Of a DNA stretch of 64,000 nucleotides, positions 10,411-49,800 are shown one piece after another. Each line of letters starts with the position of its first letter. The first letter of the stretch is position 1. The stretch lies in contig OZ024743.1 of NCBI GenBank assembly GCA_964016885.1, forward strand, positions 351,850,001 to 351,914,000, written 5' to 3'. Source of the stretch: Eledone cirrhosa (Eukaryota). The notes beneath the pieces are model-generated. The model saw only the letters and a list, made by a program, of their open reading frames with translations, did no database searches and was not told the origin of the DNA. A program made the translations under genes and the position numbers.

Positions 10411-10582
10411 ATATATATATGAAAATTAGGATTGGTGCTCTGAAATAGCGATGTATACATGAATGTATGTATAGTATATCTAGCGATATACTGTATGTTT
10501 AATTAAAAACATTTAGAAGACCTTGCGTTATTATTTTAGAGTAATGACTATGTCACTTCTTTTTTCAACAAGGGAAGGGAGA

Positions 10583-10628
10583 TAAGCTGACAGAACTGTT
10601 TCACACTGTTGGTGTTCATCAGAGCTTA
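10583..10628 (-). ncRNA. Minimal type I hammerhead ribozyme
   Basis: Minus strand: taagct-CTGATGA-acac caaca gtgt-GAAA-cag tt ctg-TC-agctta. All three stems pair, with a GUC cleavage triplet. Confidence 0.85.
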
Positions 10629-10738
10629 GCACTCGTCGACCTTTGTTGAAAATTTGCTCTATATAATCAGTTCCTGATTATTACTGGAATTCTATAAGAA
10701 TCCAGGCTCTATAATTTTCAACAAAGGTCGGCGAGTGC

Positions 10739-10784
10739 TAAGCTCTGATGAACACCAACAGTATGAAACAGTTCTGTCAGCTTA
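10739..10784 (+). ncRNA. Minimal type I hammerhead ribozyme
   Basis: taagct-CTGATGA-acaccaacagtat-GAAA-cagttctg-TC-agctta. Predicted cleavage after C10778; one mismatch in stem II. Confidence 0.8.
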
Positions 10785-12199
10785 TCTCCCTTCCCTTGTT
10801 GAAAAAAGAAGTAAGTGACATAGTCACTACTCTAAAATAATAACGCAAGGTCTTCAAACGTTTTTAATTAAACATACAGTATATCGCCAGATATACTATA
10901 CATGCATTCATATATATATATATATATAAATAATGTATGTATGTATATGCATGTGTGTGTGTGCATGCATGTGTTTGTTCCACATTTGAAAATGTCAGCC
11001 AGTAACATTTGTTTATGTCCTGCATAAACAATAATCCTGGCTCAATGGTTTGACGTGCAATGATCCGTACCTTACTTGAATGAATAAAAAAAACAAGTAA
11101 ATTAAAATGTTGTTTGGCAGAAAAAAAATAGTCATATCCCATAATCCACATGGTCATTTTGTACCATTATCCCTTTTGTTAGCACATTTCTAATGGAAGA
11201 AACTGCATGATTTTCAAAGAATTTTGAAAATATTAAACATTTTTAGGATTTAATAAAATAACTTTCAGATTATTATTATTTGGTGTTTGGAACATAACAA
11301 CAAAAGTTCTAACATGGAATTGTTTTGTATCATAGAAGCATAGTTGTTTTCAGTGAGGTTAGTATCAAAATGATTAAATATTTTTTTTATCTAAGTGTAA
11401 TGAGTGAAAAATACCCATCTTTAGTAGTTTCCAAATTGTCTTTTCCTGTCCAATGGGTCATTTTCAGGTCAGCACTACAAGCTAATAAAAATACTCATAA
11501 GTTGCTCATAGCCTGTAGAAGTTACTTGCATCTTCATTATTCTACTTATTTACAGCAAACTAGACTAACTTGTTGAGAGTTAAGTGTCTTTATCTGGAAT
11601 TGTGTACAACACTATTGACAATATATGAACTAACAAGTCTTGACTAGTAGACCGATAACCTATCCACTTGGTCACCAGCAGTTTTCTTTGCTTGGAATAC
11701 TGGGGATTAATATATTCCTAGTGTAAGATGGTAGTGCTGATGCCACTACAAAAAACACCCAGTTCATTGTGTAAGGTTATCGTGCTGGTGCCACAACAAT
11801 AAACAACCAGTCCACTATAAGAAGTCATGATAAAATGCTCCCAATATACTCTGTAACACAGTCTTCATTCAATTTCTGTGTATATTGGCAATTACGATTT
11901 TATTTGATGTATCATATCCACATGCATATATACTTGCGTATAATATCAATATGCACACTTCAGATGGTTTTTCTGCTTGTATATATAATATATATTTAAA
12001 ATAGTCGAAATCAGTGTTGCAGCATAAGTACAAATTTTATTTGCTCAGGGTACAATCAAGGTGACTGGGCCCACCTCTATTTTGAGATCTCGTCAGATAT
12101 GTGAGCTTATATGTGCAAAGACACATCTAAACTATTGACAGAGGTCCTGAGATCCGTTTATATACACTTATTGGGTTTGTTGGGGTGGGGGTGGGGTAA

Positions 12200-12879: not shown

Positions 12880-15800
12880 TCAGCATGTACCCATGGGAGG
12901 TCGGGTACCCTGTATTACTGCGTGACGCCAGAAGTCACGGTCGTGTGTCATTGACTTTGAGAGGTGTAGTTGGGTAAGGTCGGCTTTTATCACCTCATCC
13001 CAAGTCATCTTGGGTCTCCCCACTCCGCGGTTTCCATCAACTTCTAGTGCTCTGCACCTTTTTATGCAGCTGTCATCCTTCATACGCATCACATGTCCAT
13101 ACCAGCGTAACCGCCTCTCCTGCACGCAGCATTTGATTCCTCTTATGCTCAGTCTCTCTCTCAATTCATTTATGCTTTGTCGTTCACGTATATTACTGTT
13201 ACACATCCATCGGAGCATGCAGGCTTCGTTTCTCTCTAATCTACGTAAGTCTTCCACCTTCAGCGCCCAGGTCTCACTACCATGCAACATCGCTGTTCGG
13301 ATACACGCATCATACAGTCTGCCTTTCATTCTGAGGGAGAAGCCTTTTGCAGCTAGCAGTGGTAGTAGTTCCCTAAACTTCTTCCATCCCGTTCTTACCC
13401 TAGTTATTGTACTTTCTGAGCACCCACCTCCGTTGCTAATTCGGTCACCTAGGTAGCAGAAGCTGTCTACTGTTTCTACAGGGCCCTCCCAGAGATTGGT
13501 GGTACTTGTTTCCTGTGGCTGTTTGCTTGCTGTTTCAGCACAGCTGCTGCATGTGAATCCTACATTCTTAATTAAGCTTCCTGAGATCCCGCTACATCTC
13601 TTGTGTACCCATTGTTTGCATTTGGGGCAAAGAATGGAGTTCCTACCTACACCTTTCCTACATACTGAGCAAGGCCATTTCCCTGAGGGGATCTGGGTTC
13701 TGTTTTCTCGTCTACTTATAAGGACCTTAGTCTTTGTCATGTTGACTTTGAGGCCCTTTCTCTCTAGTCCCTGCTTCCAGGTTTGGAATTTATTCTCTAG
13801 TTCTACCATAGATTCAGCTATGAGTGCGAGGTCATCAGCATACAGGAGTTCCCATGGGCATCCGGTCTTAAACTCCTCCGTTATTGCCTGCAGGACTATG
13901 ATGAACAGGAGAGGGCTAAGAACAGAGCCCTGGTGGACCCCAACCTGTACGCTAAATTCCTCGCTATACTCATTGCCAATCCTAACTTTGCTGACTGCTC
14001 CCCTATACATGGCTTGTACCGCTTTCACAAGCCATTCATCTACTCCTAGTTTTCTAAGAGCCCACCAGATTACTGCACGTGGAACTCTGTCAAAGGCTTT
14101 CTCAAGGTCGACAAATGCCAAGTAGAGTGGCTTACTTTTAGCTAGGTACTTTTCCTGTAATTGCCTCACAAGGAAGAGCGCATCAGTGGTGCCTTTCCCT
14201 GGAACAAACCCAAATTGCATCTCGTCTATATTCACCCGGTCCCTAATCAGCTGTGCTATAACTCTTTCTGTTACTTTCATGACCTGGTCCATCAACTTTA
14301 TACCTCTATAGTTTCCTCTATCTAGTGCATCGCCTTTACCTTTGTAGCAGTTGACAATGATGCTACTGCACCAATCTTTTGGTATGGCCCCCTCTAGTAT
14401 TACCTGGTTAACGATACGTGTGGTTATAGTGTGACCTACAGACCCAGATGCCTTCAGCATCTCGGCAGCTATACCCGATGGACCGGTTGCCTTCCCTATC
14501 TTCATATCTCTGATTGCCTTACTTACTACGCTGCCGCTGACTTGTACTGCTGGTCCCTCTATAGGGTCTACGTGGGGTAGGGTCTCTTCTTCCCATGCAT
14601 TCTCCTCATTTAGTAATCTATCATAATGACTCTTCCATGCATCTTTCTTCTCAGCACTTGTGAGGGCAAGCTCACCTTTATCATTCCGGATACACTTCTC
14701 TCCAATGACATCACAACTATCTCTGACACACTGCCTCGCAATCTTGAATACCTCCTGTTTCTGGTCCTCACGTTGTAAAACATGCTTGAATTTTCTATCC
14801 TCTGCTTCCCTCCTAGCTAAGTATACTTGTCGCCTAGCTTCCCTCTTGGTCTCTATGTAATGTACCCTGCTCCCCCCGTTCTTCCATTCTTTCCATGCCT
14901 GTCTCTTGGCCTTGACTGCTTCATCTACCTTATTGTTCCACCACCAAGTCACTCTCCTCCTGCTTGAGGTCTTACTCCAGCCACAAACCTCATCCGTCGC
15001 CTCTAGTAAGTTATTTTTTAGGAACTCCCAGTTCTCTTCTACGTTAAATGTCTCTATCTGTTCTTCTTTACTGTCGTAGGCGTTGAGTAAAATATCTTTA
15101 AATCTGTTACTGGTTGAGGGGACTTTCAGCTTCCAGATCTTTCTTCTCCAGGTTGGCCTCTGTTTCAGGGCTCGTCTAGTTCTGACCGTGAGGTCGCTGA
15201 CAACTAAGCTATGTTGGGATGTACATTCCTCACTAGGGAAGGCTTTTGTGTTTACGACCGTCCATCTGTCACGTCCTCTGATGAGGATAAAATCTAACTG
15301 ACTAGAGTGCTCCCCTGATCTATAGGTGATCAGGTGGTTGTCGGGTTTTTTAAAGTTTGTGTTACATATCGACATGTCATTGGCGTCGCAGAATTCTAGA
15401 AGTCTGAATCCTTCCTCATTCCTTGTGCCAACTCCATGGCCTCCATGTACTCTATTGAAGCCGTCGCAGTGTTTACCTACGTGTCCGTTAAAATCTCCTG
15501 CAATGATTAGGAAGTCCTTGTCGTCTGTTAGAGCAGTAGTGTGTATTAGGGACTCGTAAAACCTATCCTTAAGTTCGTCTGGCAGCCCCGATTGGGGTGC
15601 GTAAGCTGATATTATTGTGGTAATTGTCTTATTCAGGACTAGTCTGAGTTTAATGATTCTTGCATTTACCCTGTACACTGAGATTACTTTATCTACCCAC
15701 TTGTCAGCTAATAGTATACCTACACCACCCATCCCATCGTCATTTCCCACCCAGAAAAATTTGTAGCACTGGCTTTTTCCTACAAGGACTCTAGCAGACC

Positions 15801-15999
15801 CTCCTCTCCATCTAGTCTCTTGCACACAGCATACATCAACTTCCTTTCGCTCTAGCATTTCTACGATTTCTCCTGCTCTTCCTTTCATTGAGCCTACATT
15901 GATGGTACCAACTCGGAGTTTTGGGCATTTGTCGACACTCGTAGGGGAGGGTCTCTGGGTTGGCGCTTCACGTGGGTGCTTGGTAGCTCGCAGATTCAT
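12880..15999 (-). CDS. RTE LINE polyprotein, 1039 aa: AP endonuclease + reverse transcriptase + PHD-like finger
   Basis: Uninterrupted ATG-initiated ORF. APE motifs GTINVGSM, QETRW, AYAPQ, GDFNGHVG, LDFIL, SQH. RT motifs NYRGIKL, QFGF, FVDLEKAFDRV, GVHQGSVLSPLLF, LYADD. RTE C-terminus RLRWYGHVMRM..GRPKMTW. Confidence 0.95.
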   Translation of the reverse strand: MNLRATKHPREAPTQRPSPTSVDKCPKLRVGTINVGSMKGRAGEIVEMLERKEVDVCCVQETRWRGGSARVLVGKSQCYKFFWVGNDDGMGGVGILLADKWVDKVISVYRVNARIIKLRLVLNKTITTIISAYAPQSGLPDELKDRFYESLIHTTALTDDKDFLIIAGDFNGHVGKHCDGFNRVHGGHGVGTRNEEGFRLLEFCDANDMSICNTNFKKPDNHLITYRSGEHSSQLDFILIRGRDRWTVVNTKAFPSEECTSQHSLVVSDLTVRTRRALKQRPTWRRKIWKLKVPSTSNRFKDILLNAYDSKEEQIETFNVEENWEFLKNNLLEATDEVCGWSKTSSRRRVTWWWNNKVDEAVKAKRQAWKEWKNGGSRVHYIETKREARRQVYLARREAEDRKFKHVLQREDQKQEVFKIARQCVRDSCDVIGEKCIRNDKGELALTSAEKKDAWKSHYDRLLNEENAWEEETLPHVDPIEGPAVQVSGSVVSKAIRDMKIGKATGPSGIAAEMLKASGSVGHTITTRIVNQVILEGAIPKDWCSSIIVNCYKGKGDALDRGNYRGIKLMDQVMKVTERVIAQLIRDRVNIDEMQFGFVPGKGTTDALFLVRQLQEKYLAKSKPLYLAFVDLEKAFDRVPRAVIWWALRKLGVDEWLVKAVQAMYRGAVSKVRIGNEYSEEFSVQVGVHQGSVLSPLLFIIVLQAITEEFKTGCPWELLYADDLALIAESMVELENKFQTWKQGLERKGLKVNMTKTKVLISRRENRTQIPSGKWPCSVCRKGVGRNSILCPKCKQWVHKRCSGISGSLIKNVGFTCSSCAETASKQPQETSTTNLWEGPVETVDSFCYLGDRISNGGGCSESTITRVRTGWKKFRELLPLLAAKGFSLRMKGRLYDACIRTAMLHGSETWALKVEDLRRLERNEACMLRWMCNSNIRERQSINELRERLSIRGIKCCVQERRLRWYGHVMRMKDDSCIKRCRALEVDGNRGVGRPKMTWDEVIKADLTQLHLSKSMTHDRDFWRHAVIQGTRPPMGTC

Positions 16000-16313
16000 A
16001 TTTCATCTATTGATTCAGAGTTGCTCGTGTATTCCCAGCTCATCCATCCATAACGGTGGGAAAATTGAGGGCTAGAAGGACAGTGGTGGTGGGGTAATGG
16101 CAGGGTGTGTTGGGATGCGCCAGAGGAGGAGAGAGTTAGTTAGGCAGGTAGTAGCAGCAGCAGCAGTGGAAATGGCATGCTAGGTTTGATTGGTCGAATA
16201 GACTATGGTGGTGTGTGGGGGTGGGGGGGAGGGAAATTGTGAGGTAGGAACTGAGGGTCGCATGGTAAATATCCAAGTTAATACTACATCAGTAAAATTA
16301 ACAATAATAACGT

Positions 16314-18200: not shown

Positions 18201-18297
18201 ATATATATATAGTAATAATAATAAATTTGAAGACTAAAATCCAAAGAGGGCTCGATAAGGATAAATATATATCAAATATATAAGAACCGTAGAGCAA

Positions 18298-18722
18298 ATA
18301 TTTATTAAAATAACAGATTAAAGTTTAAGCAAAGAATCGCTGCTTTCACCCTTAACGGGATCTTCTTAAACTGACAAAGTCAATCTGTAAACGCAGAAGT
18401 GAATATTTCAAAAAACGTTGCAACCGGAGGAAGACAGGAAGACGATACTTTGGTTTGTGGAAACGTTCCCTGGCAAAGAACGGGAAAAAACGAATATAAT
18501 ACGCTCCAAATAATGATGTATTATATTCGTTTTTTCCCGTTCTTTGCCAGGGAACGTTTCCACGAACCAAAGTATCGTCTTCCTGTCTTCCTCCGGTTGC
18601 AACGTTTTTTTAAATATTCACTTCTGCGTTTACAGATTGACTTTGTCAGTTACAGAAGATCCCGTTAAGGGTGAAAGCAGCGATTCTTTGCTTAAACTTT
18701 AATCTGTTATTTTAATAAATAT
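18298..18722. repeat. ~205-bp-arm near-perfect inverted repeat (Penelope-type inverted pseudo-LTR) with a degenerate hammerhead in each arm
   Basis: Arms 18298-18502 and 18518-18722. Right arm agtta-CAGAAGA-t ccc gttaa ggg t-GAAA-gca..tgc-TT-aaact (18648-18698) has hammerhead topology but a mutated CUGA. Confidence 0.8.
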
Positions 18723-19079: not shown

Positions 19080-22000
19080 TCATCATCATCATCATCAACG
19101 TTTAACGTCCGTGTTCCACGCTTGCATGGGTTTGGACGGGGGTAGTCCCACTTGAGGCAAGAGTGATTGTCTTGCTCGCATAGGACTGTCTGGCAGGTTT
19201 TCTACAGTTGGATGCCCTTCCTAACACCAACCACATTTACAGTGTGGGTCTGGGAGGTTTTTACCGTGTTGCCTACACGGCCACATTACAGCGTGGACTG
19301 TGTGTTTTTTTGTCGTGACACCTACACGATCTCATTTGTTTCGGCCCGGATGGCGCGGCACCAACATAACTTTACATAGGACGGGGTGGTGTGGATGGGG
19401 TGGGGGTGGTGGTGGTGGGACGGGGTGTATTTTGTTAGAGATGCCTACTGGCAAGGCGGGTCTTCTCTGTTACTGAGTACCGCCAAAGGTCTCGGTCCAG
19501 TGACATTGTCTTGGAGAGGTGTAAGTGTGTGAGGTCGGAGTTTATCAGCTCGTCCCAGGTTTTTCTAGGTCTGCCTATTCCGTGGCTACCGTCTATCTTT
19601 ATTGCCCTGCACTTTGTTATACAGCTATCGACTTTCATGCGCATCACGTGTCCATACCAACGTAGCCTTCTCTCGAGTAAACAACATCTGATCCCTCTTA
19701 TCTCTAATTTTTTCCTTAGTTCGTTTATGCTTTGCCGTTCACGTATATTACTGTTACACATCCAGCGGAGCATGCAAGCTTCGTTCCTCTCTAGTCTGCG
19801 TATATCCTCTGCACACAATGCCCAGGTCTCACTGCCATGCAACATTGCTGTTCGTATGCAGGCATCGTACAACCTGCCTTTCATTTTTAGGGAGAACCCT
19901 TTAGCAGCTAATAGTGGTATAAGCTCTCTGAACTTTTTCCAACCAGTTCTGACTCTAGCTACAGTACTTTCAGAGCACCCTCCCCCACTGCTGATTTTAT
20001 CGCCCCGGTAACGGAAGCTGTCCACTATTTCTATAGAACCCTCTGCGCAATTGAAAGAGCTAGTATTTTGTGGGCACTTGCTGCTACTTATTGCACCAGA
20101 ACACCGGCCACATGTAAAATCTATGTTCTTAGTTAGCTTACCTGTGATCCCACTACATCTTTTATGCACCCATACTTTGCATTTAGGACACAAAATGGAG
20201 TTTCTACCTACGCCTTTCCTACACACCGAGCACGACCATTTCCCAGAAGGGACCGCCGCCTTGTTTTCTTTCCTACAAACTAGAACTTTGGTCTTAGCCA
20301 GGTTAATTTTAAGTCCTTTTGACTCTAGGCCGTGCTTCCATGTTTGGAATTTCTTCTCTAGCTCGGCCATTGATTCCGCTATGAGTGTCAGGTCGTCTGC
20401 GTATAGGAGTTCCCATGGGCAGCCTGTCTTGAACTCCTCTGTTATAGCCTGAAGGGCAATAATAAATAGTAGGGGGCTGAGAACAGAGCCCTGATGGACG
20501 CCAACTTTTACGCTAAACTCTTCACTATATTCGTTGTTAATTCTAACCTTGCTGACTGTTTCTTTATACATGGCTTGTATAGACCTCACAAGCCATTCGT
20601 CAACGCCTAGTTTTCTAAGAGCCCACCAGATAATGGAGCGGGGGACTCTGTCGAAGGCTTTCTCCAAGTCGACAAAAGCTAAGTAGAGGGGTTTACCTTT
20701 AGCTAGGTACTTCTCCTGTAGTTGTCGTACTATGAAAAGAGCGTCTGTGGTACTTTTGCCTGACACAAACCCGAACTGCATTTCATCTAGGTCAATTCTC
20801 TCTCTGATTAGTTGCGCTATTACTTTTTCTGTGACCTTCATGACCTGGTCGATTAATTTAATGCCTCTATAGTTACTCCTATCTAGGGCGTCTCCTTTAC
20901 CCTTATAACAGTTAACGATGATGCTGCTATGCCAGTCCTTCGGAACAACCCCATTCTGTACGACTTGGTTAACTATGCGGGTGACCATGGTGTGTCCCAC
21001 CGTGCCAGATGCCTTCAGCATCTCAGCAACTATTTCCGAAGGCCCAGCCGCCTTACCAGTCTTCATATCCTTGATTGCCTTACTTATTATACTCCCCTCG
21101 ACTAACACTGCTGGTCCCTCTATTGGGTCGACATGGGGGAGACTGTCTTTCTCCCATTTATTCTCCTCATTTAGTAGCCTTTCATAGTGACACTTCCAAG
21201 CTGCCTTCTTATCAGTGTCGGTGATGGCAAGTATGCCATCATCGTTAAGTACACACTTCTCCCCGACAATATCACGGTTTTCCTTGACGCATTGCCTAGC
21301 AATCCTGAACACCTCACGTTTTTGGTCATCGCGTTGTAGGACATGCTTGAACTTTCTTTCCTCAGCTTCCCTTCTTGCTAAGTACACTTCTCTCCTAGCT
21401 TCCCTCCTGGCCACTTGATAGTCTACTCTACTTCCCCCATCCCGCCATACTTTCCAAGCCTGCTTTTTGGCCTTAATTGACTCCTCCACCTTACTGTTCC
21501 ACCACCATGTTACTCTCCTCCTGCCTACAGGCCTGCTCCAGCCACAGACTTCGTCTGTGGCCAACAGCAGGTTTGCTTTCAGAAATTCCCACTGTCCCTC
21601 TATATTGTCCGACTCTAAGTGTTCTTCCTTACTGTCGAAAGCATCAAGTAATATGTTTTGAAATTTATTTTTGGCTGTGGGGTCCTTTAGTTTCCATATT
21701 TTTCTCCTGAGGATAGTCCTCTTCTGCTGTCGAGTACGTCTCGACCTGACTATGAGGTCGCTAATTATCAGTCTATGTTGGGAGGTGCATTCTTCATGGG
21801 GGAGGGATTTAGTGTTTACAACAGACACTCTGTCACGTCTTCTGGTAAGGATATAATCTACCTGGCTTGTGTGTTCCCCGGATCTATAGGTGATCAGGTG
21901 ATTGTCACGTTTTTTGAAGTTAGTGTTACAGATAGTTAGGTTATTTGCATCACAGAATTCCAGGATTCTGGAGCCTTCCTCATTTCTAGTACCAAACCCA

Positions 22001-22583
22001 TAGCCTCCATGGATTTCGTCGTAGCCGTCACAATGTTGCCCAACGTGACCATTTAGGTCGCCTGCAATAATTATATAGTCACTGTCAGATATTTGGGAGG
22101 TAGTGAGCATCAGTGTCTCATAGAATCTGTCTTTTATAGTGCCGGGCAGTCCGGATTGGGGTGCATACGCAGATATTACTGTCACCGTAGTTCTATTGAG
22201 GACAAGTCGTATTTTAATTATTCTGTCGTTCACTCTATTTACGTCTATTATCTTATCCGCCCACTTTTCTGCTACCATGATTCCTACTCCACCCAGCCCA
22301 TCGTCGTTTCCCACCCAGAAAAGCTTATAACATCGTTTTTTACCCTCAATGAATCTAGCAGACCCACCCCTCCACCTGGTCTCTTGAATACAACAAACAT
22401 CGACCTCCTTACGTTCAAGCATTTCTACAACCTCGTTAGCGCGCCCCTTTAGGGTGCCTACATTTATGGTACCAACTCTGAAGTTTTGGATCGCGTTTGG
22501 AGGGTGGGGGTGGTGTGGGGCGGGGGGAGATGGGGTTATGTTAGCCATCCGCGGGCGAAACAAAGAAGAGTGCTCGCATTCTC
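19080..22583 (-). mobile_element. RTE-clade LINE, family B, nested inside a family A copy
   Basis: (GAT)n tail at 19080-19096. GACA occurs at both junctions (19076-19079, 22584-22587), and the host RTE sequence continues across the insertion. Confidence 0.9.
19435..22548 (-). CDS. RTE LINE polyprotein (~1037 aa from ATG 22548): APE + RT + PHD-like finger
   Basis: Uninterrupted ORF with the same motif set as 12880-15999 but clearly diverged. It has FRYRGD where family A has FCYLGD. Confidence 0.93.
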   Translation of the reverse strand: MANITPSPPAPHHPHPPNAIQNFRVGTINVGTLKGRANEVVEMLERKEVDVCCIQETRWRGGSARFIEGKKRCYKLFWVGNDDGLGGVGIMVAEKWADKIIDVNRVNDRIIKIRLVLNRTTVTVISAYAPQSGLPGTIKDRFYETLMLTTSQISDSDYIIIAGDLNGHVGQHCDGYDEIHGGYGFGTRNEEGSRILEFCDANNLTICNTNFKKRDNHLITYRSGEHTSQVDYILTRRRDRVSVVNTKSLPHEECTSQHRLIISDLIVRSRRTRQQKRTILRRKIWKLKDPTAKNKFQNILLDAFDSKEEHLESDNIEGQWEFLKANLLLATDEVCGWSRPVGRRRVTWWWNSKVEESIKAKKQAWKVWRDGGSRVDYQVARREARREVYLARREAEERKFKHVLQRDDQKREVFRIARQCVKENRDIVGEKCVLNDDGILAITDTDKKAAWKCHYERLLNEENKWEKDSLPHVDPIEGPAVLVEGSIISKAIKDMKTGKAAGPSEIVAEMLKASGTVGHTMVTRIVNQVVQNGVVPKDWHSSIIVNCYKGKGDALDRSNYRGIKLIDQVMKVTEKVIAQLIRERIDLDEMQFGFVSGKSTTDALFIVRQLQEKYLAKGKPLYLAFVDLEKAFDRVPRSIIWWALRKLGVDEWLVRSIQAMYKETVSKVRINNEYSEEFSVKVGVHQGSVLSPLLFIIALQAITEEFKTGCPWELLYADDLTLIAESMAELEKKFQTWKHGLESKGLKINLAKTKVLVCRKENKAAVPSGKWSCSVCRKGVGRNSILCPKCKVWVHKRCSGITGKLTKNIDFTCGRCSGAISSSKCPQNTSSFNCAEGSIEIVDSFRYRGDKISSGGGCSESTVARVRTGWKKFRELIPLLAAKGFSLKMKGRLYDACIRTAMLHGSETWALCAEDIRRLERNEACMLRWMCNSNIRERQSINELRKKLEIRGIRCCLLERRLRWYGHVMRMKVDSCITKCRAIKIDGSHGIGRPRKTWDELINSDLTHLHLSKTMSLDRDLWRYSVTEKTRLASRHL

Positions 22584-24128
22584 GACAGTTACAGGAAAAG
22601 TACCTAGCTAAAAGTAAGCCACTCTACCTGGCACTCGTCGATCTCGAGAAAGCCTTTGACAGTTCCCTGTGCTATAATCTGGTGGGCTCTTAAAAAACTA
22701 GGAGTAGATGAATGGCTTGTGAAAGCTGTACAAGCCATGTATAGGGGAGCAGTCAGCAAAGTTAGGATTAGCAATGAGTATAGCGAGGAATTTAGCGTAC
22801 AGGTCGGTGTCCACCAGGGCTCTGTTCTTAGCCCTCTCCTATTCATCATAGTCATGCAGGCAACAATGGAGGAGTTTAAGACCAGATGCCCATGGAAACT
22901 CCTGTATGCAGATGACCTCGCACTTATAGCTGAATCTATGGTAGAACTAGAGAAGAAATTCCAAACTTGAAAGCAGGGACTAGAAAGAAAGGGTCTCAAA
23001 GTCAACCTGACAAAGACTAAGGTTTTTGTAAGTAGACGAGAAAACAGAACCCAGATCTCCTCAGGGAAATTGCCTTGCTCAGTATGTAGGTAGGAACTCC
23101 ATTCTCTGCCCCAAATGCAAACAGTGGGTACACAAAAGATGTAGCGGGATCTCAGGAAGCTTAACTAAGAATGTAGGCTTCACATGTAGCAGCTGTGCTG
23201 GGACAGCAAGCAGCAAACAGCCACAGGAAACAAGTACCACCAATCTCTGGGAGGGCTCTGTAGAAACAGTAGACAGCTTCTGTTACCTAGATGACCGAAT
23301 TAGCAGTGGAGGTGGGTGTTCAGAAAGTACAATAATTAGGGTAAGAACGGGATGGATGAAGTTCAGGGAGCTACTGCCACTGCAAAAGGCTTTCCCCTCA
23401 AAATGAATGCGTGTATGTTACATGGTAGTGAGACCTGGGCGCTGACTATGGAAGACTTGCGTAGATTAGAAAGAAACGAAGCCTGCATGCTCCGGTGGAT
23501 ATGTAATAGTAATATACGCGAACGGCAAAGCATAAATGAATTGAGAGAGAGAGACTGAGCAAAAGAGGAATCAAATGCTGGTGCAGGAGAGGCGATTGCG
23601 CTGGTATGGACATGTGATGCGTATGAAGGATGACAGCTGCATAAAAAGGTGCAGAACACTAGAAGTCGATGGAAGCTGCAGAGTGGGGAGACCCAAGAAG
23701 ACCTGGGATGAGGTGATAAAAGCCGACCGTACCCAATTGCACCTCTCAAAGGCAATGACACACGACCATGACCTCTGGCGACACACAGTAATACAGAAGA
23801 CCCGACCACCCACGGGTACAAGCTGAAGCTGAAGCATATAGACATATGCCCCCAGACCCTTCCACTGCAAAGTGGTCGTGGAGGTGCGACGGCAAAAAAG
23901 CACCCAGCCCACACTGTAAAGTGGACGTGTAGGCGCCACGAAAAAAAGCACCCAGCACTCACTGTAAATGAGGTTGGTGTTAGGAAGGGCATCCAGCTGT
24001 AGAAATCAAGCCAGAATCAGTTCCCGTATGAGCAAGACAAGGTCAGCCGACCGGATACTGCCCACAACAGGACAACCCGTCTAACCCATGCTAGCGTGGA
24101 AGAACGGATGTAAAACGATGAGGATGAT
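22584..24128 (+). mobile_element. Decayed RTE family A copy (RT to 3' UTR and (GAT)n tail)
   Basis: Reverse-complement homolog of 12575-14165, with stops and small deletions. Confidence 0.9.
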
Positions 24129-26246: not shown

Positions 26247-26397
26247 TATATATATATATATGTTTATATATATATATGTATATATGTTTATATATATATA
26301 TATATGTTTATATATATATATGTTTTTATATATATATATATATATGTTTATATATATATATATATATATATATGTGTTTTTATATATATATATATAA
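25765..26397. repeat. (TA)n/(TG)n compound microsatellite containing a 30-bp unit repeated ~8 times
   Basis: tatatatgtttgtgtgtgtgtgtatatata repeats at 25831-26070. Confidence 0.95.
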
Positions 26398-26558
26398 CAA
26401 AGGAATTGTGGTAAGGAACCAGATGGACCATAACGCACCAGAGTACTCAATACTTAGGGTAGTAGAGTGGGAAATAGAAAAAAGTATGACCCCAATGGCA
26501 GAGCTCAAGCCGTTTCGACGGCTATTTCTTGAGCTCAGCCGTCGGGGTCATACTTTTT

Positions 26559-34348: not shown

Positions 34349-36560
34349 AGAACAAAAGATGGTTAAAAGAGTTCCATGTATTTTATTATGCACATTTCAA
34401 AAACAAATATCATCATGCAATAATATTTGTGTTTTCATCAGATAAAACAGGAAGACATGATATGAAGGTTAAAAAACACTTGTGGATAGTGCAGTTTTAA
34501 ATCAACATATGAGAAGTAGTTTTAGATTGATGTGTGATATTGGGAAAAATATTTTATTTTGAGGGGGGTGGGGCTGGAAAGGATGAAAAAGAGGAGGAGA
34601 TGAGAGTAAAAAGTGGAGAGGGAGGAGTATAATGAGGAAGGATGAGATAGGAGGAGAGATGGGTGATAGAGAGATAGCTTTTATAACTGAGAAAGATATA
34701 TTGTTTTACATAGAGAGGTTGAAAACCGTTGGAAGATAATGTATAAATTAAATGAATTTGAAAATTAACGAAGAGAAAAATAATGTAAAGTTAAGGTTTG
34801 TATATTGAGGGGTTTAATAATATGTACGATGAAAAGAAAATGTTAATATGTATTAAGAATAATATTTAAGAGTTTAATAACATGTGCGATGGAAAGAAAA
34901 AGTTAATATGTATTAAGAATGATATTTAAGGGTTTAATAATATGTGCGATGGAAAGAAAATGTTGATATGTATTATTAAAAAGAACAACAGGTAATTTAA
35001 GTAAGGATATATTGTGAGATGAGCATGAATGAGTTAGATGAAAGGGAGAAAAGAATAATGAATTGATTAATAATCTATCGTCAAAAAAAATGTTTATGTT
35101 TACGAAGGATTTTTACAAGGTGATATAGAGTAAGAATGTATTGTATTATGTAATAATTGATTCTATGTTAGGCAACAGTGAGAAAAGGTACAGATTAGGG
35201 GTTAGACATTAAAAGAAAAAGAGAAGAAAGGGAAGTGATAAATAGGAGCGATATAGAATGAGTAACAAGTATTATATAATGTATAATAAAACCTTTGAAA
35301 TAAGGTAGAAAGATGGGTATATTTTTAAAGAAGTGTATATATATATATGTGCCTTTGAGAAAAAGATTCTAAATTGATAAAGATTTGGATATTAGCTGTA
35401 TACTTTGTGGAATGTTTTGTGGAATTTATGCAAGCAGATAGAAAACAAGTCAGTGCGTCTATTTATTATAGAATCTAAATTAGATATAATGGTAAATTTT
35501 TCATTTAGACAAAGATTGCAAATCTTGGATAGAGAACTGTTCAAGTATAAAGAAGCAGAAGAAACCTTCCAAAAGATGCTATATTTAATATTTTTGTCTT
35601 TCAAGGACCATATGAGTTCTGAGAGAGCCGTGTTAGTTCTTTTAAGTTTGTATTTAAAAGACGAATGATGGTTATAAAGACGAGCTTTAAAAGAGGTGGA
35701 AGTGGAGCCAAAATAGGTGAAGGAATTGGTGTCAGTTATAACTTTACATTCGTAAATTAAGTTTTTATCAAGACAATGGTTGTTGAGAGGACATTTATTT
35801 TTAACAGGGCAATTGCAATTGCGATTAGAGAGATTATTAACGAGTGACCTAGTGTTATCTATACAAGGAATTGGATTGGAGAAGTTATTTGCGATAGGAA
35901 TAATAGTTTCTTGATTTAGAATGGGATTAAGAACATTTAGCGAAGTTGTGTTTGACGTATTTGGGTTTGCAGAAATTAGCCTAGGGTTTACAATGATGTC
36001 GGGAGTACTATTACTATTATTATGATATTCAGTGTTGGAAGGAAGAGATTTAGTATTTAGTATTTTATTGTTGTGTTTAGAGATAATGTTGGAGGATGTA
36101 GAATAGGAAAATTTTATAGTGTGTTTGTTAAATATTTTACTATAGATATGTGAGGGAGGGAAGCATTTATTTAAGGCACTAAAGAATAATTTAGGAATAT
36201 TATTATTAATAGAGATGGAGAAAGGAGCATTATACCAGATTATGTTTTTGTATCTAGGTCTTTTATTAAAGTTATTGGAATGATCATGATTAATTATTCT
36301 ACTGTAAGTTCTTCTAGAATTTGTTTCTTTACTATATTTGATTTTATCAGGATAGCCGGCTTTAGAAAGCGCGTTATTATAGTAATTGGCGTTAGCATCA
36401 AAGATGTTTTTATTAGAAGATAGGTTAGATATTCTTTTTCCAATATTACTAACTATAGCATTCTTGATATTAGTAGGATGGTTAGATTTAAAGTTAACAT
36501 AATTTAGGTTCTCATTGTTTTTATGGTAAGGGTAATATAGGCCAGTGTTCTTATATATTA
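34349..36560 (-). mobile_element. 5'-truncated Penelope-like element (RT thumb + Cys linker + GIY-YIG endonuclease) with ~1 kb 3' region
   Basis: ORF 35392-36612: LYYPYHK..YVNFKSNHP, IIWYNAPFS, IFNKHTIKFSYS, CNCPVKNKCPLNNHC, LIYECKV..TYFGST.FKARLYNH, CNLCLNEK. Hammerhead in the 3' region. Confidence 0.88.
34381..34447 (-). ncRNA. Type I hammerhead ribozyme in the 3' pseudo-LTR of the Penelope element
   Basis: Minus strand: ttttat-CTGATGA-aaacacaaatattatt gcat gatgatatttgttttt-GAAA-tgtgca-TA-ataaaa. Same polarity as the ORF. Confidence 0.8.
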
Positions 36561-36780
36561 TGTATAATCCAGTCCTACAAACTGTAGAGTGCTTCTTATC
36601 CGATATCTGCATTGCTTTATTGTACTACAATAAAACTCACCTCCTACATATATATATATATATATATGTATATACATATATATATGTATATATATATATA
36701 TATGTATATATATATGTCTATATATATGTATATAAATATGTATATATATATATGTATATATATATATATGTCTATATATG

Positions 36781-36811
<31 letters not shown>

Positions 36812-36919
36812 GTATATATCTGTGTATAAGAATTTTATGAATTAGTAATAATCGGCCAAATCTATCTTACAATGACAGGTCAACAAGCAGGGGGCCAAAA
36901 TACTAAAAAAAGAAAAAAC

Positions 36920-38900
36920 TAATACGAAATAACAATTCAGAATCCCCCCCCCCCCCAATACTGATATACGAGAAACTAAAGCAGAGATACCACTAAGAAA
37001 TCTAGAAGTCACGGAAATGGGGCAGCAATCAGATAAGAAAGCAAGTATCTGGGGTCTAGCACATCTGCTATAAAAAGCGGAATCGGGCAATTCTATCATA
37101 GAATAGGGGGTGGGGGTACAGAGGACCGAAGGGCTGCCTCGGGGTGGGCGAGAAGGTGAAAAGAACGACGACTAAGAAGGAGATCTGGGGTGGAAGGATT
37201 AGGAAGGGATGGGGGGAAATATAGAGAAAACAAAAAAATATATAAGAAAATCTTAGGTCTACCTTTGTAAGCTTACCCACTACAAAGTGGGCAAGTGTGG
37301 TGTTACAACCCTTGTCTACCCCCCCCCCCCGCCAGGTCATTATGGGGTTTGAGGGCGAGGTAAGTCCTACGCAATCTATGTTTGCATGCAGTTACCAGTT
37401 CGTCTTTCTTGTTTAGGAGTTGGTCCGTCGAAAACAGGATTTGTAATGTTTCCTCCGAGCATAAGTTACATGGACGGCGTCCTCCCGTGTAAGAGTTGGC
37501 TCTGGACAGTAAGCGCCAAGTGAGATTATAGGTTATATTGTTATCTTTGAGGTCCCAGATGTGGCCCGAAAGTGTAGTGGCGTGACGCCGGGCCGGGTTT
37601 CGGAAAGTATGTCTGTGTTGGTATAGTCGGGTCTTGAAGTCACAAACGGTTAATCCTATATAAGCTTTGTTGGAGGTGTCCGTCCTCACGTTGCACTGGT
37701 AGATCACATTACGATCTCTGCATCTGTTGTCGAGGGGGCAAATGGATCCATCAGGACAGTTACACCTGGTCGGCTTTCCACTGCTATCTAGGTTATTTCT
37801 TCCATAGGGATTGAGTTTTTTGTTGTTAGAGGAGACGATGTTTTGTGCAAAGTTAGGTGTGGTGCTGTAGGAGAGTTTGATGGTATTTTTGTTGATTATG
37901 TTGTGGTAGCGGTGTTGTAGTGGGAAGTGTTTTTCTAATGAGCCTAAAGAAGATTTTCCCGATAGGTGTTGTCACCTCGGCGTTGTGTGGAGGATTGAAC
38001 CATGTTACTTCGCGTGAGAGGCGGTGTCGCCTGCTGGTTCCGTTAATGGAAGCTGGACAGTAGATATTTCCTCCCGGAAGCCACTCCGCTTGAGGGCCTG
38101 GTTGTAATAAGGCGCATGTTCCTCGAATATCTGCTCATTAGCGGACAAACGAGATATGCGGAGGGAGATGTTTTTAACCAGGTTATTGGTGATGTTTCTA
38201 GGATGGTTTGACCGGCGGTGGATGTAGTTCAGGTTGTCATTTGGTTTCGGTATGGGTAGTACAGATCATTTTTGAGGTTAAGGATAACGTCCAGGAAATT
38301 GAGTCGAGTTATGGACGTTTCTAGGGTGATTTTAAATCCCCAGTCCCGGAAGAAATTGATTAATTGTTTACGGACCCGGTCTATACTACTGGGGTTGTAC
38401 CCTTTAAGGGTAAGGAGCCCATCATCACAGTACAATCCACCGCCGAATGCAGGAAAAATATCGGTGAGTTTAACTCGTAGGAATAATCCTAGACAAGGGC
38501 TGTAACACCCCACTTGCCCACTTTGCAATGGGTAACCCCTGCTTACAAAGGTAGACGTAAGATTTTCTTATATATTTTTTATTGTTTCCTCTATATTTCC
38601 TTCTTCCCCCATCCCTTCCACCCCAGATCTCCTTCTTTATCGTCGTTCTTTTCACCTCACCCACCCCGAGGCAGCCATTCGGTCCTCTGTACCCCCCCCC
38701 TATTCTATGATAGAATTGCCCGATTCCGCTGTTTATAGCAAATGTGCTAGACCCCAGATACTTGCTTTCTTATCTGATTGCTGCCCCATTTCCGTGATTT
38801 CTAGATTTCTTAGTGGTATCTCTGCTTTAGTTTCTCGTATATCAGTATTTGGGGTGGGTGGGTGGGGTGGGGGGGGGTTCTGAATAAATTTTTCTTATTA
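36920..38900 (-). mobile_element. Second Penelope-like element (RT motif C to GIY-YIG, 37303-38490) flanked by ~400-bp inverted repeats (36920-37318 / 38490-38900)
   Basis: GGLYCDDGLL, LNFLDVILNL..YYPY, IYQCNV..AYIGLT..FKTRLYQH, CNLCSEE. The flanks are reverse complements, the hallmark inverted pseudo-LTR at a 5' truncation. Confidence 0.9.
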
Positions 38901-39031
38901 AATTTTCCGTATTAGTTTTTCATATATATCGTATGACCATTTATGTAGTTTGTATTAGAATTTATGTATTGTAGCAGTACTCTTATATATCGTATTAGTA
39001 TTCATTTTCGAAATTCTGAATAAATATTTCG

Positions 39032-40065
39032 TATTAACGGCTGAGTAGCCCAATTTGCATATCGAGTGGGTTAATCGGCCGGGTGCACCGAAAACGATAA
39101 ACGGAAAAAATGAAACGAAATTTCATTTCCCACTCTTAGTACGGCTTTTACTTAAATATAAGTATGTATACGTACATACATATATGTATACAGACGTACA
39201 GTAGTATGTATATATATATACATACATGCGCACATACATATATGTACGTATTGATTCACCGAACATTTATTATAATGCTCGGTGTGTTTGTAAACAAACA
39301 TCCCTTATTAAGACGTAGTGTCTAGCAACCATCGTTGCTCGTTTGTTCAACACTGACAAAGCAACGCTGTACTAGATTCAAGCTTATTAGCTATCGTCAG
39401 CAACGTATACCTTCCTGCCAGATGATTGAACGTCTGAAAGTATATACTTTCCTTATGCATATTAACGGCTGAGTAGCCCAATTTGCATATCGAGTGGGTT
39501 AATCGGCCGGGTGCACCGAAAACGATAAACGGAAAAAATGAAACGATATTTCATTTCCCACTCTTAGTACGGCTGTTACTTAAATGTAAGTATGTATACT
39601 TAAATACATATATGTATACAGACGTACAGCAGTATGTATATATATATATATACATACATGCACACATATATATATGTACGTATGGATTCACCGAACATTA
39701 ATTATAATGCTCGGTGTGTTTGTAAATAAACATCCCGTATTAAGCCGTAGTGTCTAACAACCATCGTTGCTCGTTTGTTCAACACTGACGAAGGAACGCT
39801 GTACTAGTTTCAAGCTTATTAGCTATCGTGAGCAACGTATACCTTCCTGCCAGATGATTGAACGTCTGAAAGTATATACTTTCCTTATGCATATTAACGG
39901 CTGAGTAGCCCAATTTGCATTTCGCGTGGGTTAATCGGCCGGGTGCACCGAAAACGATAAACGGGAAAAAATGAAAGGAAATTTCATTTCCCACTCTTAG
40001 TACGGCTGTTACTTAAATATAAGTATGTATACTTACATACATATATGTATACAGATGTACAGTAG

Positions 40066-40143
<78 letters not shown>

Positions 40144-40810
40144 CACATATATATATATGTACGTATGTTTGTTTACAAACACACCGAGCATTATAATAAA
40201 TGTTCCGTGAATCCATACGTACATGTACATAAGGAAAGTATATACTTTCAGACGTTCAATCATCTGGCAGGTAGGTATACGTTGCTGATGAAAACTAATA
40301 AGCTTGAAACTAGTGCAGTGTTGAACAAACGAGCAACGATGGTTGCTAGACACTACGGCTTAATACGGGATGTGTGTTTACAAACACACCGAGCATTATA
40401 ATAAATGTTCGGTGAATCCATACGTTCATATATATATGTGTGCATGTATGTATATATATATACATACTACTGTACGTCTGTATACATATATGTATGTACG
40501 TATACATACTTATATTTAAGTAACAGCCGTTTCATTTTTTCCGTTTATCGTTTTCGGTGCACCCGGCCGATTAACCCACTCGATAAGCAAATTGGGCTAC
40601 TCAGCCGTTAATATGCATAAGGAAAATATATACTTTCAGACGTTCAATCATCTGGCAGGAAGCTATACCTTGCTGACGATAGCTGACAGCGTTCCTTTGT
40701 CAGTGTTGAACAAACGAGCAAAGATGGTTGCTAGACACTACGGCTTAAACACACCGAGCATTATAATAAATGTTCCGTGAATCCATACGTACATATATAT
40801 ATATGTGTGC

Positions 40811-40854
<44 letters not shown>

Positions 40855-40900
40855 TACTGTACGTCTGTATACATATATGTATGTATACTTATGTATGTAT
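39032..40900. repeat. Dispersed inverted block of the 420-bp hammerhead satellite: ~2.7 monomers on - (39032-40165), then rearranged monomers on + (40165-40900)
   Basis: Same sequence as 46881-64000 plus a diagnostic tttcagac insertion. All four hammerhead motifs carry lesions. Confidence 0.92.
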
Positions 40901-41044
40901 ACTTATATATGTATACTTATGTATATATATATGTATATATATATAAAGGAACGATCGACTTTCGTCAAATCGGACCGAGGGAACAATGTTTCCGTTGGTC
41001 TTTCCAATTGCTAATACTATCTATCGGTCGCAACTCCAGGTAGA

Positions 41045-41747: not shown

Positions 41748-42420
41748 TGAAAGGATAGACCAACACTGGGAGGAACTAAAAGGACGAAAAAACGGTTCAG
41801 TACTATACGAACAAGCCAGACAACAAACGACGGTAACATAGACAACATTGAAATTAGAATAATATCTAAACATAGAAATGACTCAGCAGATAGGCAAATC
41901 AGAGAGGCCAGTGAAATAGAACTTAGAAGGCCTAGGCTAAACAGAAAGAATGAATGGAATAACAACAACACCAAACAAACAACACTGACCTAAGAGAAGT
42001 ATAAATAAATAAATAGATAAATAAATAAATAAATACATACACAAGCACAATAACAACAAACACATATAAACACACACTAGTAAAGATAGAATGCATTAAC
42101 CAATACACAGTCACCCAATCACGAACACACATCAAACAAAACACTATACACACACGCAAACGCATGCGCAAAGAAGACAAAATAAAATAAATAAATATAT
42201 AAACAGACTAAATAAAGATGGCGTAGAAAATACAATGCAACGGAGGAAACAATAGCACCACTGACGATGTTGCAGATGTGCAACGAAAGAACTTTGATAA
42301 ACTATATATATGTGTTTGTGTCTATATTGTATCTGTATTATTTTTGACCGTTGGTCAGTCAATGGCAACATTGAGGACCGAATAAATTAGATTATCGATA
42401 TAAAAGACACAGAAGCGAAA
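41748..42420 (+). mobile_element. 3' fragment of a third Penelope-like family (GIY-YIG C-terminus + 3' region with a hammerhead core at 42261-42288)
   Basis: [15 protein letters not shown] / [44 protein letters not shown]-t-gttgca gatg tgcaac-GAAA, with stems I and III degenerate. Confidence 0.6.
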
Positions 42421-42429
42421 ACCAAGCAA

Positions 42430-46880: not shown

Positions 46881-49800
46881 ATTGGGCTACTCAGCCGTTA
46901 ATATGCATAAGGTAAGTATATACGCTCAACAATCTGGCAGGAAGGTATAGGTTGTTGAGGATAGCTAACAAGCTTGAAACTAGTACAGCATTACTTTGTC
47001 AGTGTTGAACAAACGAGTAACGGTGGTTGCTAGACACTACGGTTTAATACGGGATGTTTGTTTACAAACACACCGAGCATTATAATAAATGTTCGGTGAA
47101 TCCATACGTACATATATATATGTGTGCATGTATGTATATATATATACATACTACTGTACATCTGTATATATATGTGTATTTAAGTATACATACTTACATT
47201 TAAGTAACAGCCGTACTAAGAGTGGGAAATGAAATATCGTTTCATTTTTTCCGTTCATCGTTTTGGGTGCACCCGGCCGATTAACCCACTCGATATGCAA
47301 ATTGGGCTACTCAGCCGCTAATATGCATAAGGTGAGTATATACGTTCAACAATCGGGCAGGAAAGTATACGTTGCTGACGATAGCTAACAAGCTTGAAAC
47401 TAGTACAGCGTTCCTTTGTCAGTGTTGAACAAACGAGCAACGGTGGTTGCTAGACATTACGGCTTAATACGGGATGTTTGTTTACAAACACACCGAGCAT
47501 TATAATAAATGCTCGGTGAATCCATACGTGCATATATATATATGTGCATGTATGTATATATATATACATACTACTGTACGTCTGTATACATATATGTATG
47601 TAGGTGTACATATTTATATTTAAGTAACAGCCGTACTAAGAGTGGGAAATGAAATATCGTTTCATTTATTCCGTTTATCGTTTTCGGTGCACCCGGCCGA
47701 TTAAACCACTCGATATGCAAATTAGGCTACTCAGCCGTTAATATGCATAAGGTAGGTATATACGTTCAACAATCGGGCAGGAAAGTATACGTTGCTGACG
47801 ATAGCTAACAAGCTTGAAACTAGTACAGCGTTCCTTTGTCAGTGTTGAACAAACGAGCAACGGTGGTTGCTAGACATTACGGCTTAATACGGGATGTTTG
47901 TTTACAAACACACCGAGCATTATGATAAATGTTCGGTGAATCCATACGTGCATATATATATGTGTGCATGAATGTATATATATATATACATACTACTGTA
48001 CGTCTGTATACATACATGTATGTACGTGTACATACTTATATTTAAGTAACAGCCGTACTAGGTGTTGGGAAATGAAATATCGTTGCATTTTTCATCGTTT
48101 TCGGTGCACCCGGCCGATTAACCCACTCGATATGCAAATCGGGCTACTCAGCCGTTAATATGCATAAGGTAAGTATATACGTTCAACAATGTGGCTGGAA
48201 TGTATACGTTGCTGACGATAGCTAACAAGCTTGAAACGAGTACAGCGTTCCTTTGTCAGTGTTGAACAAACGAGCAACGATGGTTGCTAGGCACTACGGC
48301 TTAATACGGGATGTTTGTTTACAAACATACCGAGCATTATAATAAATGTTCGGTGAATCCATACGTGCATATATATATATATGTGCATGTATGTATATAT
48401 ATATACATACTACTGTATGTCTGTATACATATATGTATGTACGTGTATATACTTATATTTAAGTAACAGCCGTACTAAGAGTGGGAAATGAAATATCGTT
48501 TCATTTATTCCGTTTATAGTTTTGGGTGCACCCGGCCGATTAACCCACTCAATATGCAAATTGGGTTACTCAGCCGTTAATATGCATAAGGTAAGTATAT
48601 ACATTCAACAATCTGGCAGGAAGGTATACGTTGCTGACGATAGCTAACAATCTTGAAACTAGTACAACGTTCCTTTGTCAGTGTTGAACAAACGAACAAA
48701 GGTGGTTGCTAGAAACTAAGGCTTAATACGGGATGTTTGTTTACAAACACACCGAGCATTATAATAAATGTTCGGTTAATCCATACGGGCATATATATAT
48801 GTGTGCATGTATGTATATGTATATACATACTACTGTACGTCTGTATACATCTATGTATGTACGTGTACATACATATATTTAAGTAACAGCCGTACTAAGA
48901 GTGGGAAATGAAATATCGTTTCATTTTTTGCGTTTATTGTTTTCGGTGCACAGCCGGATTAACCCATTCGATATGCAAATTGGGCTACCCAGCCGTTAAT
49001 ATGCATAAGGTAAGTATATACGTTCAACAATCGGGCAGGAGTGTATACGTTGCTGACGGTAGCTAACAAGCTTGAAACTAGTACAGCGTTCCTTTGTTAG
49101 TGTTGAACAAACGAGCAGCAGTGGTTGCTAGACACTACGGCTTAATACGGGATGTTTGTTTACAAACACACCGAGCATTATAATAAATGTTCGGTTAATC
49201 GATACGTGCATATATATATGTGTGCATGTATGTATATATATATACATGCTACTGTGCGTCTGTATACATATATGTATGGACGTGTACATACTTATATTTA
49301 AGTAACAGCCGTACTAAGAGTGGGAAATGAAATTTCGTTTCATTTATTCCGTTTATCTTTTTCGCTGCACCCGGCCGATTAACTCACTCGATATGCAAAT
49401 TGGTCTACTCAGCCGCTAATATGCATAAGGTATGTATATACGTTCAACAATCTGGCAGGAAGGTATACGTGGCTGACGATAGCTCACAAGCTTGAAACTA
49501 GTACAGCGTTCCATTGTCAGTGTTGAACAAACGAGCAACAGTGGTTGCTAGACACTACGGCTTAATACGCGATGTTTGTTTACAAACACACCAAGCATTA
49601 TAATAAATGTTCGGTGAATCCATACGTGCATTTATATATGTGTGTATGTATGTATATATATATACATACTACTGTACGTCTGTATACATATATGTATGTA
49701 CGTGTAGATACTTATATTTAAGTAACAGCCGTACTAAGAGCGGGAAATGAAATATCGTTTCATTTTTTCCATTTATCGTTTTCGGTGAGCCCGGCCGATT

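Follow-up and report, generated by a model that had tools for sequence, protein, structure and literature searches.

A decayed insertion of a 420-432 bp hammerhead repeat, a non-LTR retrozyme, occupies 39032-40893 in head-to-head arrangement; it lies within the 64,000-nucleotide stretch analysed here (the window; G000:C4:351,850,001-351,914,000 of the 3.0-Gb animal assembly), in which the repeats have a cephalopod look. Our reading as a whole, which we regard as likely, is that Penelope-like enzymes copied the retrozyme into a (TA)n tract, and that a later deletion joined an arm of a Penelope-like element (PLE) to it. Taken separately, mobilisation of the retrozyme family by enzymes of the PLE type is very probable. 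The original prediction had the monomer spreading by Penelope-mediated retrotransposition. Inversions, (TA)n targets, and a one-sided tail agree with this, but ends at the cleavage site, an enrichment of Penelope neighbours, and tail sequence in common with an autonomous element are not supported.

Throughout, monomer positions are counted from the predicted cut site, with 47406-47825 as the reference unit. The repeat is non-coding and occurs both in tandem and dispersed, in units a few hundred bases long, each with one predicted type I hammerhead motif. An ORF survey of window positions 1-46800 found no notable coding frame in the unit, which carries no ORF for a reverse transcriptase (RT) plus GIY-YIG endonuclease such as would mark an autonomous Penelope-like element. 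This is a many-thousand-copy family, with 9,648 exact matches genome-wide to a 32-nt probe. A search of the window at Rfam gathering scores returned zero hammerheads, and the motif was instead read by pattern and pairing, which give the core, stem I, a 4-bp stem II, and a palindromic stem III, with the cut predicted to fall after a GUA triplet. The 420-bp unit is AT-rich and highly self-paired, and it folds much better than its shuffles (z -5.95). One stem I pair covaries over dispersed loci (written 5'/3', U-G at 67, G-U at 21, A-U at 12, C-G at 2, U-U at six, and U-A at three; nine loci count as unpaired), and these counts represent few evolutionary events. By pattern, 89/148 dispersed hammerhead sites are intact, and conservation in dispersed copies is not significantly higher in the core than at other positions (p 0.12). 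By parallel with the available text of PMC4209133, the palindromic stem III suggests that cleavage would depend on a dimer.

On its sequence the family fits the non-LTR retrozymes, with ribozyme function predicted. As far as the available text of the published accounts goes, it resembles the metazoan members in its non-coding tandem and dispersed units, its single type I hammerhead per unit, its AT-richness and strong self-pairing, and its PLE-rich host genome. The unit here is slightly longer than the 170-400 nt given for metazoan non-LTR retrozymes in the available part of Cervera and de la Pena 2020 (PMC7229834). Its insertions show diverging arms, not direct LTRs.

The copy at 39032-40893 is built of two such arms. 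The minus-strand arm (39032-40167) holds about 2.5 units, from monomer position ~118 to a non-canonical end at 338, and contains an expanded (TA)n at 40066-40158; the plus-strand arm (40165-40893) starts at monomer position 69 and reaches the short canonical end (~211-217), beside which lies a decayed (TA)n target (40894-40945). The opposed monomers diverging from a junction, as first described, are confirmed: the arms run from 40167 down to 39032 and from 40165 up to ~40893, and they overlap by 3 nt at the head-to-head junction (40165-40167). The distinct subfamily holds up too, as both arms have an 8-nt insertion that is absent from two aligned array units and whose probe has 2,335 exact matches genome-wide. 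Segments of the copy differ in 0/142 comparisons at common polymorphic sites and in 74/1,628 elsewhere, which argues for one template followed by decay. Over the family, segments of one insertion differ in 4.5% of comparisons at such sites versus 38% between loci; there is one haplotype per insertion.

All four hammerheads are damaged, as had been noted. On the minus strand, GAAA reads GAAT (39376) at the first site (39365-39405) and core G5 is changed to C (39830) at the second (39797-39837). On the plus strand, the third site (40280-40320) has a 14-nt deletion over the cut site and stem I, so that what was taken for a GUG triplet at 40315 is really the loss of the cut-site base and the stem I 3' strand, with no point change; the fourth (40665-40695) has lost the stem II 3' strand, GAAA, and stem III to a 17-nt deletion. 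The minus-arm hammerheads were thus hit by core point changes and the plus-arm ones by deletions. Altogether the plus arm carries five deletions within 0.73 kb (213, 14, 26, 17, and 20 nt). The minus arm has zero such deletions, and the load in the plus arm far exceeds the family rate; family-wide, short-end arms have 9 deletions in 21.2 kb versus 4 in 23.4 kb, which is too few to call. The copy is dead.

The insertion anatomy of the family was read from 104 loci, taken as probe matches in positional order on C1, over the first 91 Mb of one chromosome. They comprise 60 search loci, minus 16 that overlapped (with the loss of one large inverted array), and 60 fetched stretches; one duplicated pair (L074 and L076) is counted twice. 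Because the probes are anchored upstream of the ribozyme, short arms starting at the cut site are under-sampled. Head-to-head insertions make up 59 of the 104 loci, 44 are single-stranded in orientation, one has three parts, and none is purely tail-to-tail. An inverted arm that is truncated at its 5' end and abuts the other arm there, as in PLE-type insertions, is present at 59/104 loci, and the strong enrichment for inverted junctions that was expected of dispersed copies is found. At these junctions the arms overlap by 1-8 nt in 31 of 59 cases.

The 3' ends fall at two sites ~56 nt apart: 128 of 162 are canonical, 59 at positions 213-221 (short) and 69 at 269-275 (long), and 34 are off-site. 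Where an insertion has two canonical ends, one is nearly always short and the other long (35/37, p 5e-9), which is the one-sided tail. Both ends could be read at 58 inverted loci: 35 combine a short end with a long one, two have two short ends, none has two long ends, and in the remaining 21 one end or both are off-site. TA repeats follow 107 of the 128 canonical ends, versus 287 of 4000 random control positions, in agreement with the predicted (TA)n targets, and the long end joined to a TA repeat has 3,946 exact matches genome-wide. The expectation that copies end at the ribozyme cleavage site fails: only 1/162 3' ends lies at position 420, and the 5' starts are scattered across the unit with 0/161 within 418-8. 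The cut site is crossed by 138/164 arms, a figure inflated by probe choice. With a second probe downstream of the cut site, one of 12 loci inspected (L220) starts at position 2.

This layout is familiar from PLEs. In the portions available of Craig et al. 2021 (PMC8557442), PLE insertions carry an inverted truncated copy and a one-sided tail, and in those of Frangieh et al. 2024 (PMC11167929), measurements on a Poseidon element show reverse transcription starting at two internal sites, which define the tail, with uncut RNA as the main substrate. As described there, GIY-YIG-bearing PLE insertions share with the retrozyme the 5' truncation, the inverted second arm, the read-through of the ribozyme site, the two fixed 3' ends downstream of a hammerhead, and the AT-rich or (TA)n targets. 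They differ from it in that the retrozyme has no RT/GIY-YIG ORF, its arms contain multiple units, and its tail is ~56 nt versus 30-40 bp. The tail length, the one-armed loci (44/104), and the off-site ends (34/162) are among the points that count against a PLE-type reading. The Chlamys non-autonomous PLEs, such as MRC1, are comparable in the available text of PMC8557442 in being non-autonomous, multicopy head-to-tail, and made by PLE machinery; they have 3' sequence in common with autonomous families and mostly lack canonical hammerheads, and the retrozyme here is the reverse.

The proposed mechanism would run as follows. A PLE protein supplied in trans would bind the retrozyme RNA and nick both strands of a (TA)n tract, and reverse transcription would start at two internal RNA sites (~217 and ~273), one per strand. 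Both cDNAs would run through the ribozyme site, the template being an uncut multimer or a circle, would stop at random, and would be joined head to head, often with a 1-8 nt overlap. We give even odds to the template having been circular. In the copy at 39032-40893 the plus arm would retain its short end and the minus arm would have had the long one, later lost to a deletion of at least ~1.05 kb at a 5-nt overlap that would have taken at least 355 nt of retrozyme, the TA tract, and ~700-730 nt of PLE tail. Block duplication in situ would afterwards turn some insertions into long arrays.

The neighbouring element is a truncated PLE. Its left arm, a 3' non-coding region (36828-37302, minus strand), is internally deleted and lacks about the last 600 nt of the family 3' end; it is followed by a 5'-truncated, frameshifted ORF (37303-38489, minus strand) with an RT motif, a CxCx5C linker, and a GIY-YIG-like endonuclease, and by an inverted right arm (38490-39036, plus strand) that ends ~700-730 nt short of the long 3' end of its family. 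The ORF is Hydra-clade-like: the linker (CNCPDGSIC) stands upstream of a Y-I-G motif in a C-terminal GIY-YIG domain, and CxCx5C is a Hydra-clade trait in the part available of PMC8557442 (section 11). The endonuclease falls in an atlas GIY-YIG cluster at 0.95, with the family on 59% of members; a Pfam search of the two PLE frames matched no family. What the original prediction took for a Penelope inverted terminal repeat is the second, inverted arm of an insertion truncated at its 5' end, with both arms lacking the true 3' end. There is no spacer of ~130 bp after it. The PLE tail meets the retrozyme directly, with 5 nt common to both arms at 39032-39036, and 38862-39036 is the PLE family's own 3' region; the best 40 non-self matches to 38870-39100 end by query base 167.

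Elsewhere the family continues further. An end motif is present at 5/19 other loci, and there the family end lies 433-731 nt beyond the point where the right arm stops (699-731 in four of the five). The family 3' region exceeds 1.2 kb, and the part of it that the right arm lacks contains a hammerhead-like motif whose stem II is long and whose core is spelled atypically. This ORF-bearing family likewise has inverted stumps, with one long end and one short end. A true 3' end stump of the Hydra-like family lies at window 26392-26532, with others at L013, L017, L024, and L028.

As both the PLE and the retrozyme are cut short at a junction that occurs once in the genome, a later deletion of ~1 kb would likely have joined them, and we hold that the contact probably arose in this way. 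The main alternative, which we judge unlikely, makes the contact mechanistic, the retrozyme having been inserted directly into the PLE tail, primed by the 5-nt overlap, or copied with it from one chimeric RNA. The overlap does have the polarity that target priming would leave, and 2/19 other loci of the neighbour PLE family have a retrozyme within 1.5 kb. A single RNA does not fit, since the PLE and retrozyme parts are joined 3'-to-3'. Direct insertion is opposed by the uniqueness of the junction, by the absence of the remaining PLE tail on the other side of the retrozyme, by position 338 not being a family end, by the 3' truncation of the PLE left arm as well, and by the lack of any sequence common to the two families. 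We prefer the deletion because it explains both truncations at once; for direct insertion, an unusual start site and a deletion must both be invoked. In three runs whose type is not recorded, the contigs attest presence only, and none of their pieces spans the junction.

The statistics of neighbourhood bear on the same question. Any PLE-type repeat lies within 1 kb of 28/60 retrozyme loci, versus 8/40 random sites (p 0.01) and 7/29 TA-matched sites (p 0.063). For ORF-bearing PLE families the figures are 18/60 versus 7/40 and 5/29, which are not significant. In favour of direct insertion, the neighbour PLE family is within 1 kb of 12/60 retrozyme loci and 1/29 TA-matched sites (p 0.053). The anticipated Penelope proximity is not clearly enriched over TA-matched controls. 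The genome is rich in PLEs (10,597 candidates), and 50 GIY-YIG loci, a small share of these and drawn from at least 150 matches, contained only three retrozyme matches, all of them ordinary neighbouring insertions. Similarly, alignment of the retrozyme with 16 candidate 3' regions and the longer neighbour tail gave z <1 except for one other retrozyme family, so the tail sequence that was to be shared with autonomous Penelope elements was found neither in the 50 loci nor in the aligned 3' regions. A special link between the retrozyme and the adjacent Penelope is not supported, and the attachment of this copy is probably incidental. Among the loci retrieved were a Neptune-type PLE family with a palindromic-stem-III hammerhead 350-400 nt after the ORF (L284, L285, L288, L293, and L295) and open PLE frames of 938 and 1,096 aa (L281 and L283).

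Two further explanations do without PLE enzymes, and we consider both highly improbable. The repeat could be a satellite that spreads at the DNA level, by extrachromosomal circles, Helitron/TIR capture, or fold-back repair, with the hammerhead as a passenger. Arrays do expand as DNA (a 31-unit block in the large array and a 2-unit block in L135), and only 43/106 array units have an intact core. Random circles, however, would not give fixed 3' ends with random 5' ends, head-to-head polarity, one long and one short end, and TA flanks, and the printed flanks consist of TA repeats without the conserved Helitron or TIR termini that had been named as the alternative. Mobilisation by a LINE, such as the RTE-type elements in the window, could draw on two long APE-RT ORFs there and on twin priming, which likewise yields diverging arms, but twin priming predicts that only the 3' end would be fixed and the inner end would vary, which does not match two fixed ends paired one per arm, and neither poly(A) nor a short-repeat tail belonging to the element was seen in the printed ends.

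The family also forms long arrays. The window array, of another subfamily, begins at 46881 on the plus strand, occupies the rest of the window to 64000, and extends for 45.7 kb in all, to G000:C4:351942606. Its start, at position 316, lacks an inverted arm, and it terminates in (TA)n at the short canonical site. Other long arrays end at the same two sites: those at L309 and L310 end at the long site, and that at L307 appears to do so, at a point where the fetched stretch has its edge two bases away. The array at L306 opens with an inverted arm. The earlier claim that the monomer seeds arrays therefore stands for the family, whose long arrays end at the two sites, but not for this copy, which belongs to a different subfamily from the window array. 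The large array has 106 full units, of which 43 have an intact core. Within it (G000:C4:351,914,001-351,942,606, L301-L303), a 31-unit block of 13 kb is repeated at 99.7-100% identity; this may be a recent duplication or an assembly artefact, and such a near-exact repeat would mean growth in place by DNA duplication. Similarly, a 2-unit block alternates at L135, a block duplication in place. A second array faces the large one tail to tail, 580 bp further on.

Another insertion, L136 (G000:C1:50.603-50.607 Mb), provides a lead on the template. It has seven full 422-bp units over both arms, with one substitution in all, microsatellites included, and it carries both the short and the long end; its two-variant motif occurs eight times genome-wide, always at L136. 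A second inverted array is 99.3-99.6% uniform. Going by these sequences, L136 appears to be a young insertion and a candidate for copying from an RNA circle. It is a coin-toss whether rolling-circle target-primed reverse transcription took place, in which a Penelope enzyme would copy one retrozyme RNA circle repeatedly from two fixed starts, one per strand. Its product may be a ready-made mini-satellite from which arrays tens of kilobases long could subsequently develop. The same pattern would be left by later homogenisation, or by a uniform donor array that the assembly lacks, and L135 shows duplication in place. The one-haplotype comparison does not separate a circle from an array transcript, because at the sites compared long arrays too are uniform (0-4%).

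Several other repeats in the window deserve mention. The so-called Penelope palindromes at 10453 and 18298 do have the inverted layout, but neither is shown to be an end of an autonomous Penelope element. The first (10451-10919, within 10420-10919; also L102:406-1261) belongs to a second hammerhead family, ORF-less and with ~315-bp tandem units; it too has the inverted-plus-tail layout, and across the hammerhead it aligns weakly with the 420-bp family (z 4.9 versus shuffles). The second (18298-18722, within 18206-18722; also L221-L250) is an abundant repeat whose arms are inverted and which extends ~95 nt further on one side only, and is the commonest neighbour of the retrozyme; only 1/30 of its loci has a PLE protein match, lying apart from the repeat, and it has no linked PLE ORF. 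The window also has two intact-looking APE-RT LINE frames on the minus strand (12880-16002 and 19435-22623; 1,040 and 1,062 aa), in which a PHD-like finger follows the RT. Lastly, the region is flanked by fragments from two further PLE families (35331-36624, minus, and 41748-42421, plus).

PLE mobilisation and circular templates have been proposed for retrozymes, and PLE involvement has been argued from co-occurrence, a shared ribozyme type, and pLTR homology, in the available text of PMC7229834 and of Li, Clavereau and Pollet 2026 (bioRxiv 10.64898/2026.07.22.740005). Neither source, as available, describes the inverted arms, paired fixed ends, and TA targets seen here, and the words "tail" and "target site" both have 0 matches in the preprint text. 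Compared with the retrozymes so published, the family here has yielded no pLTR homology to a partner in the GIY-YIG loci and 3' regions compared. The literature searched describes no inverted arms with paired fixed ends in retrozymes, and no cephalopod retrozyme; subscription journals, Repbase, and preprint supplements may hold either.

In the cited papers, the enzyme that moves animal retrozymes and the copying of circles are proposed, not shown. The present family gives insertion-site evidence for Penelope-type enzymes, and it is unusually clean on the mode of insertion. In addition, it supplies exact predicted RT start sites and a young intact template. If the circle reading is true, L136 would be a fresh product, and the genome would thereby bear direct evidence of the circular-RNA step, which in the retrozyme model is only a proposal. 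The family links retrotransposition to the birth of satellite arrays.
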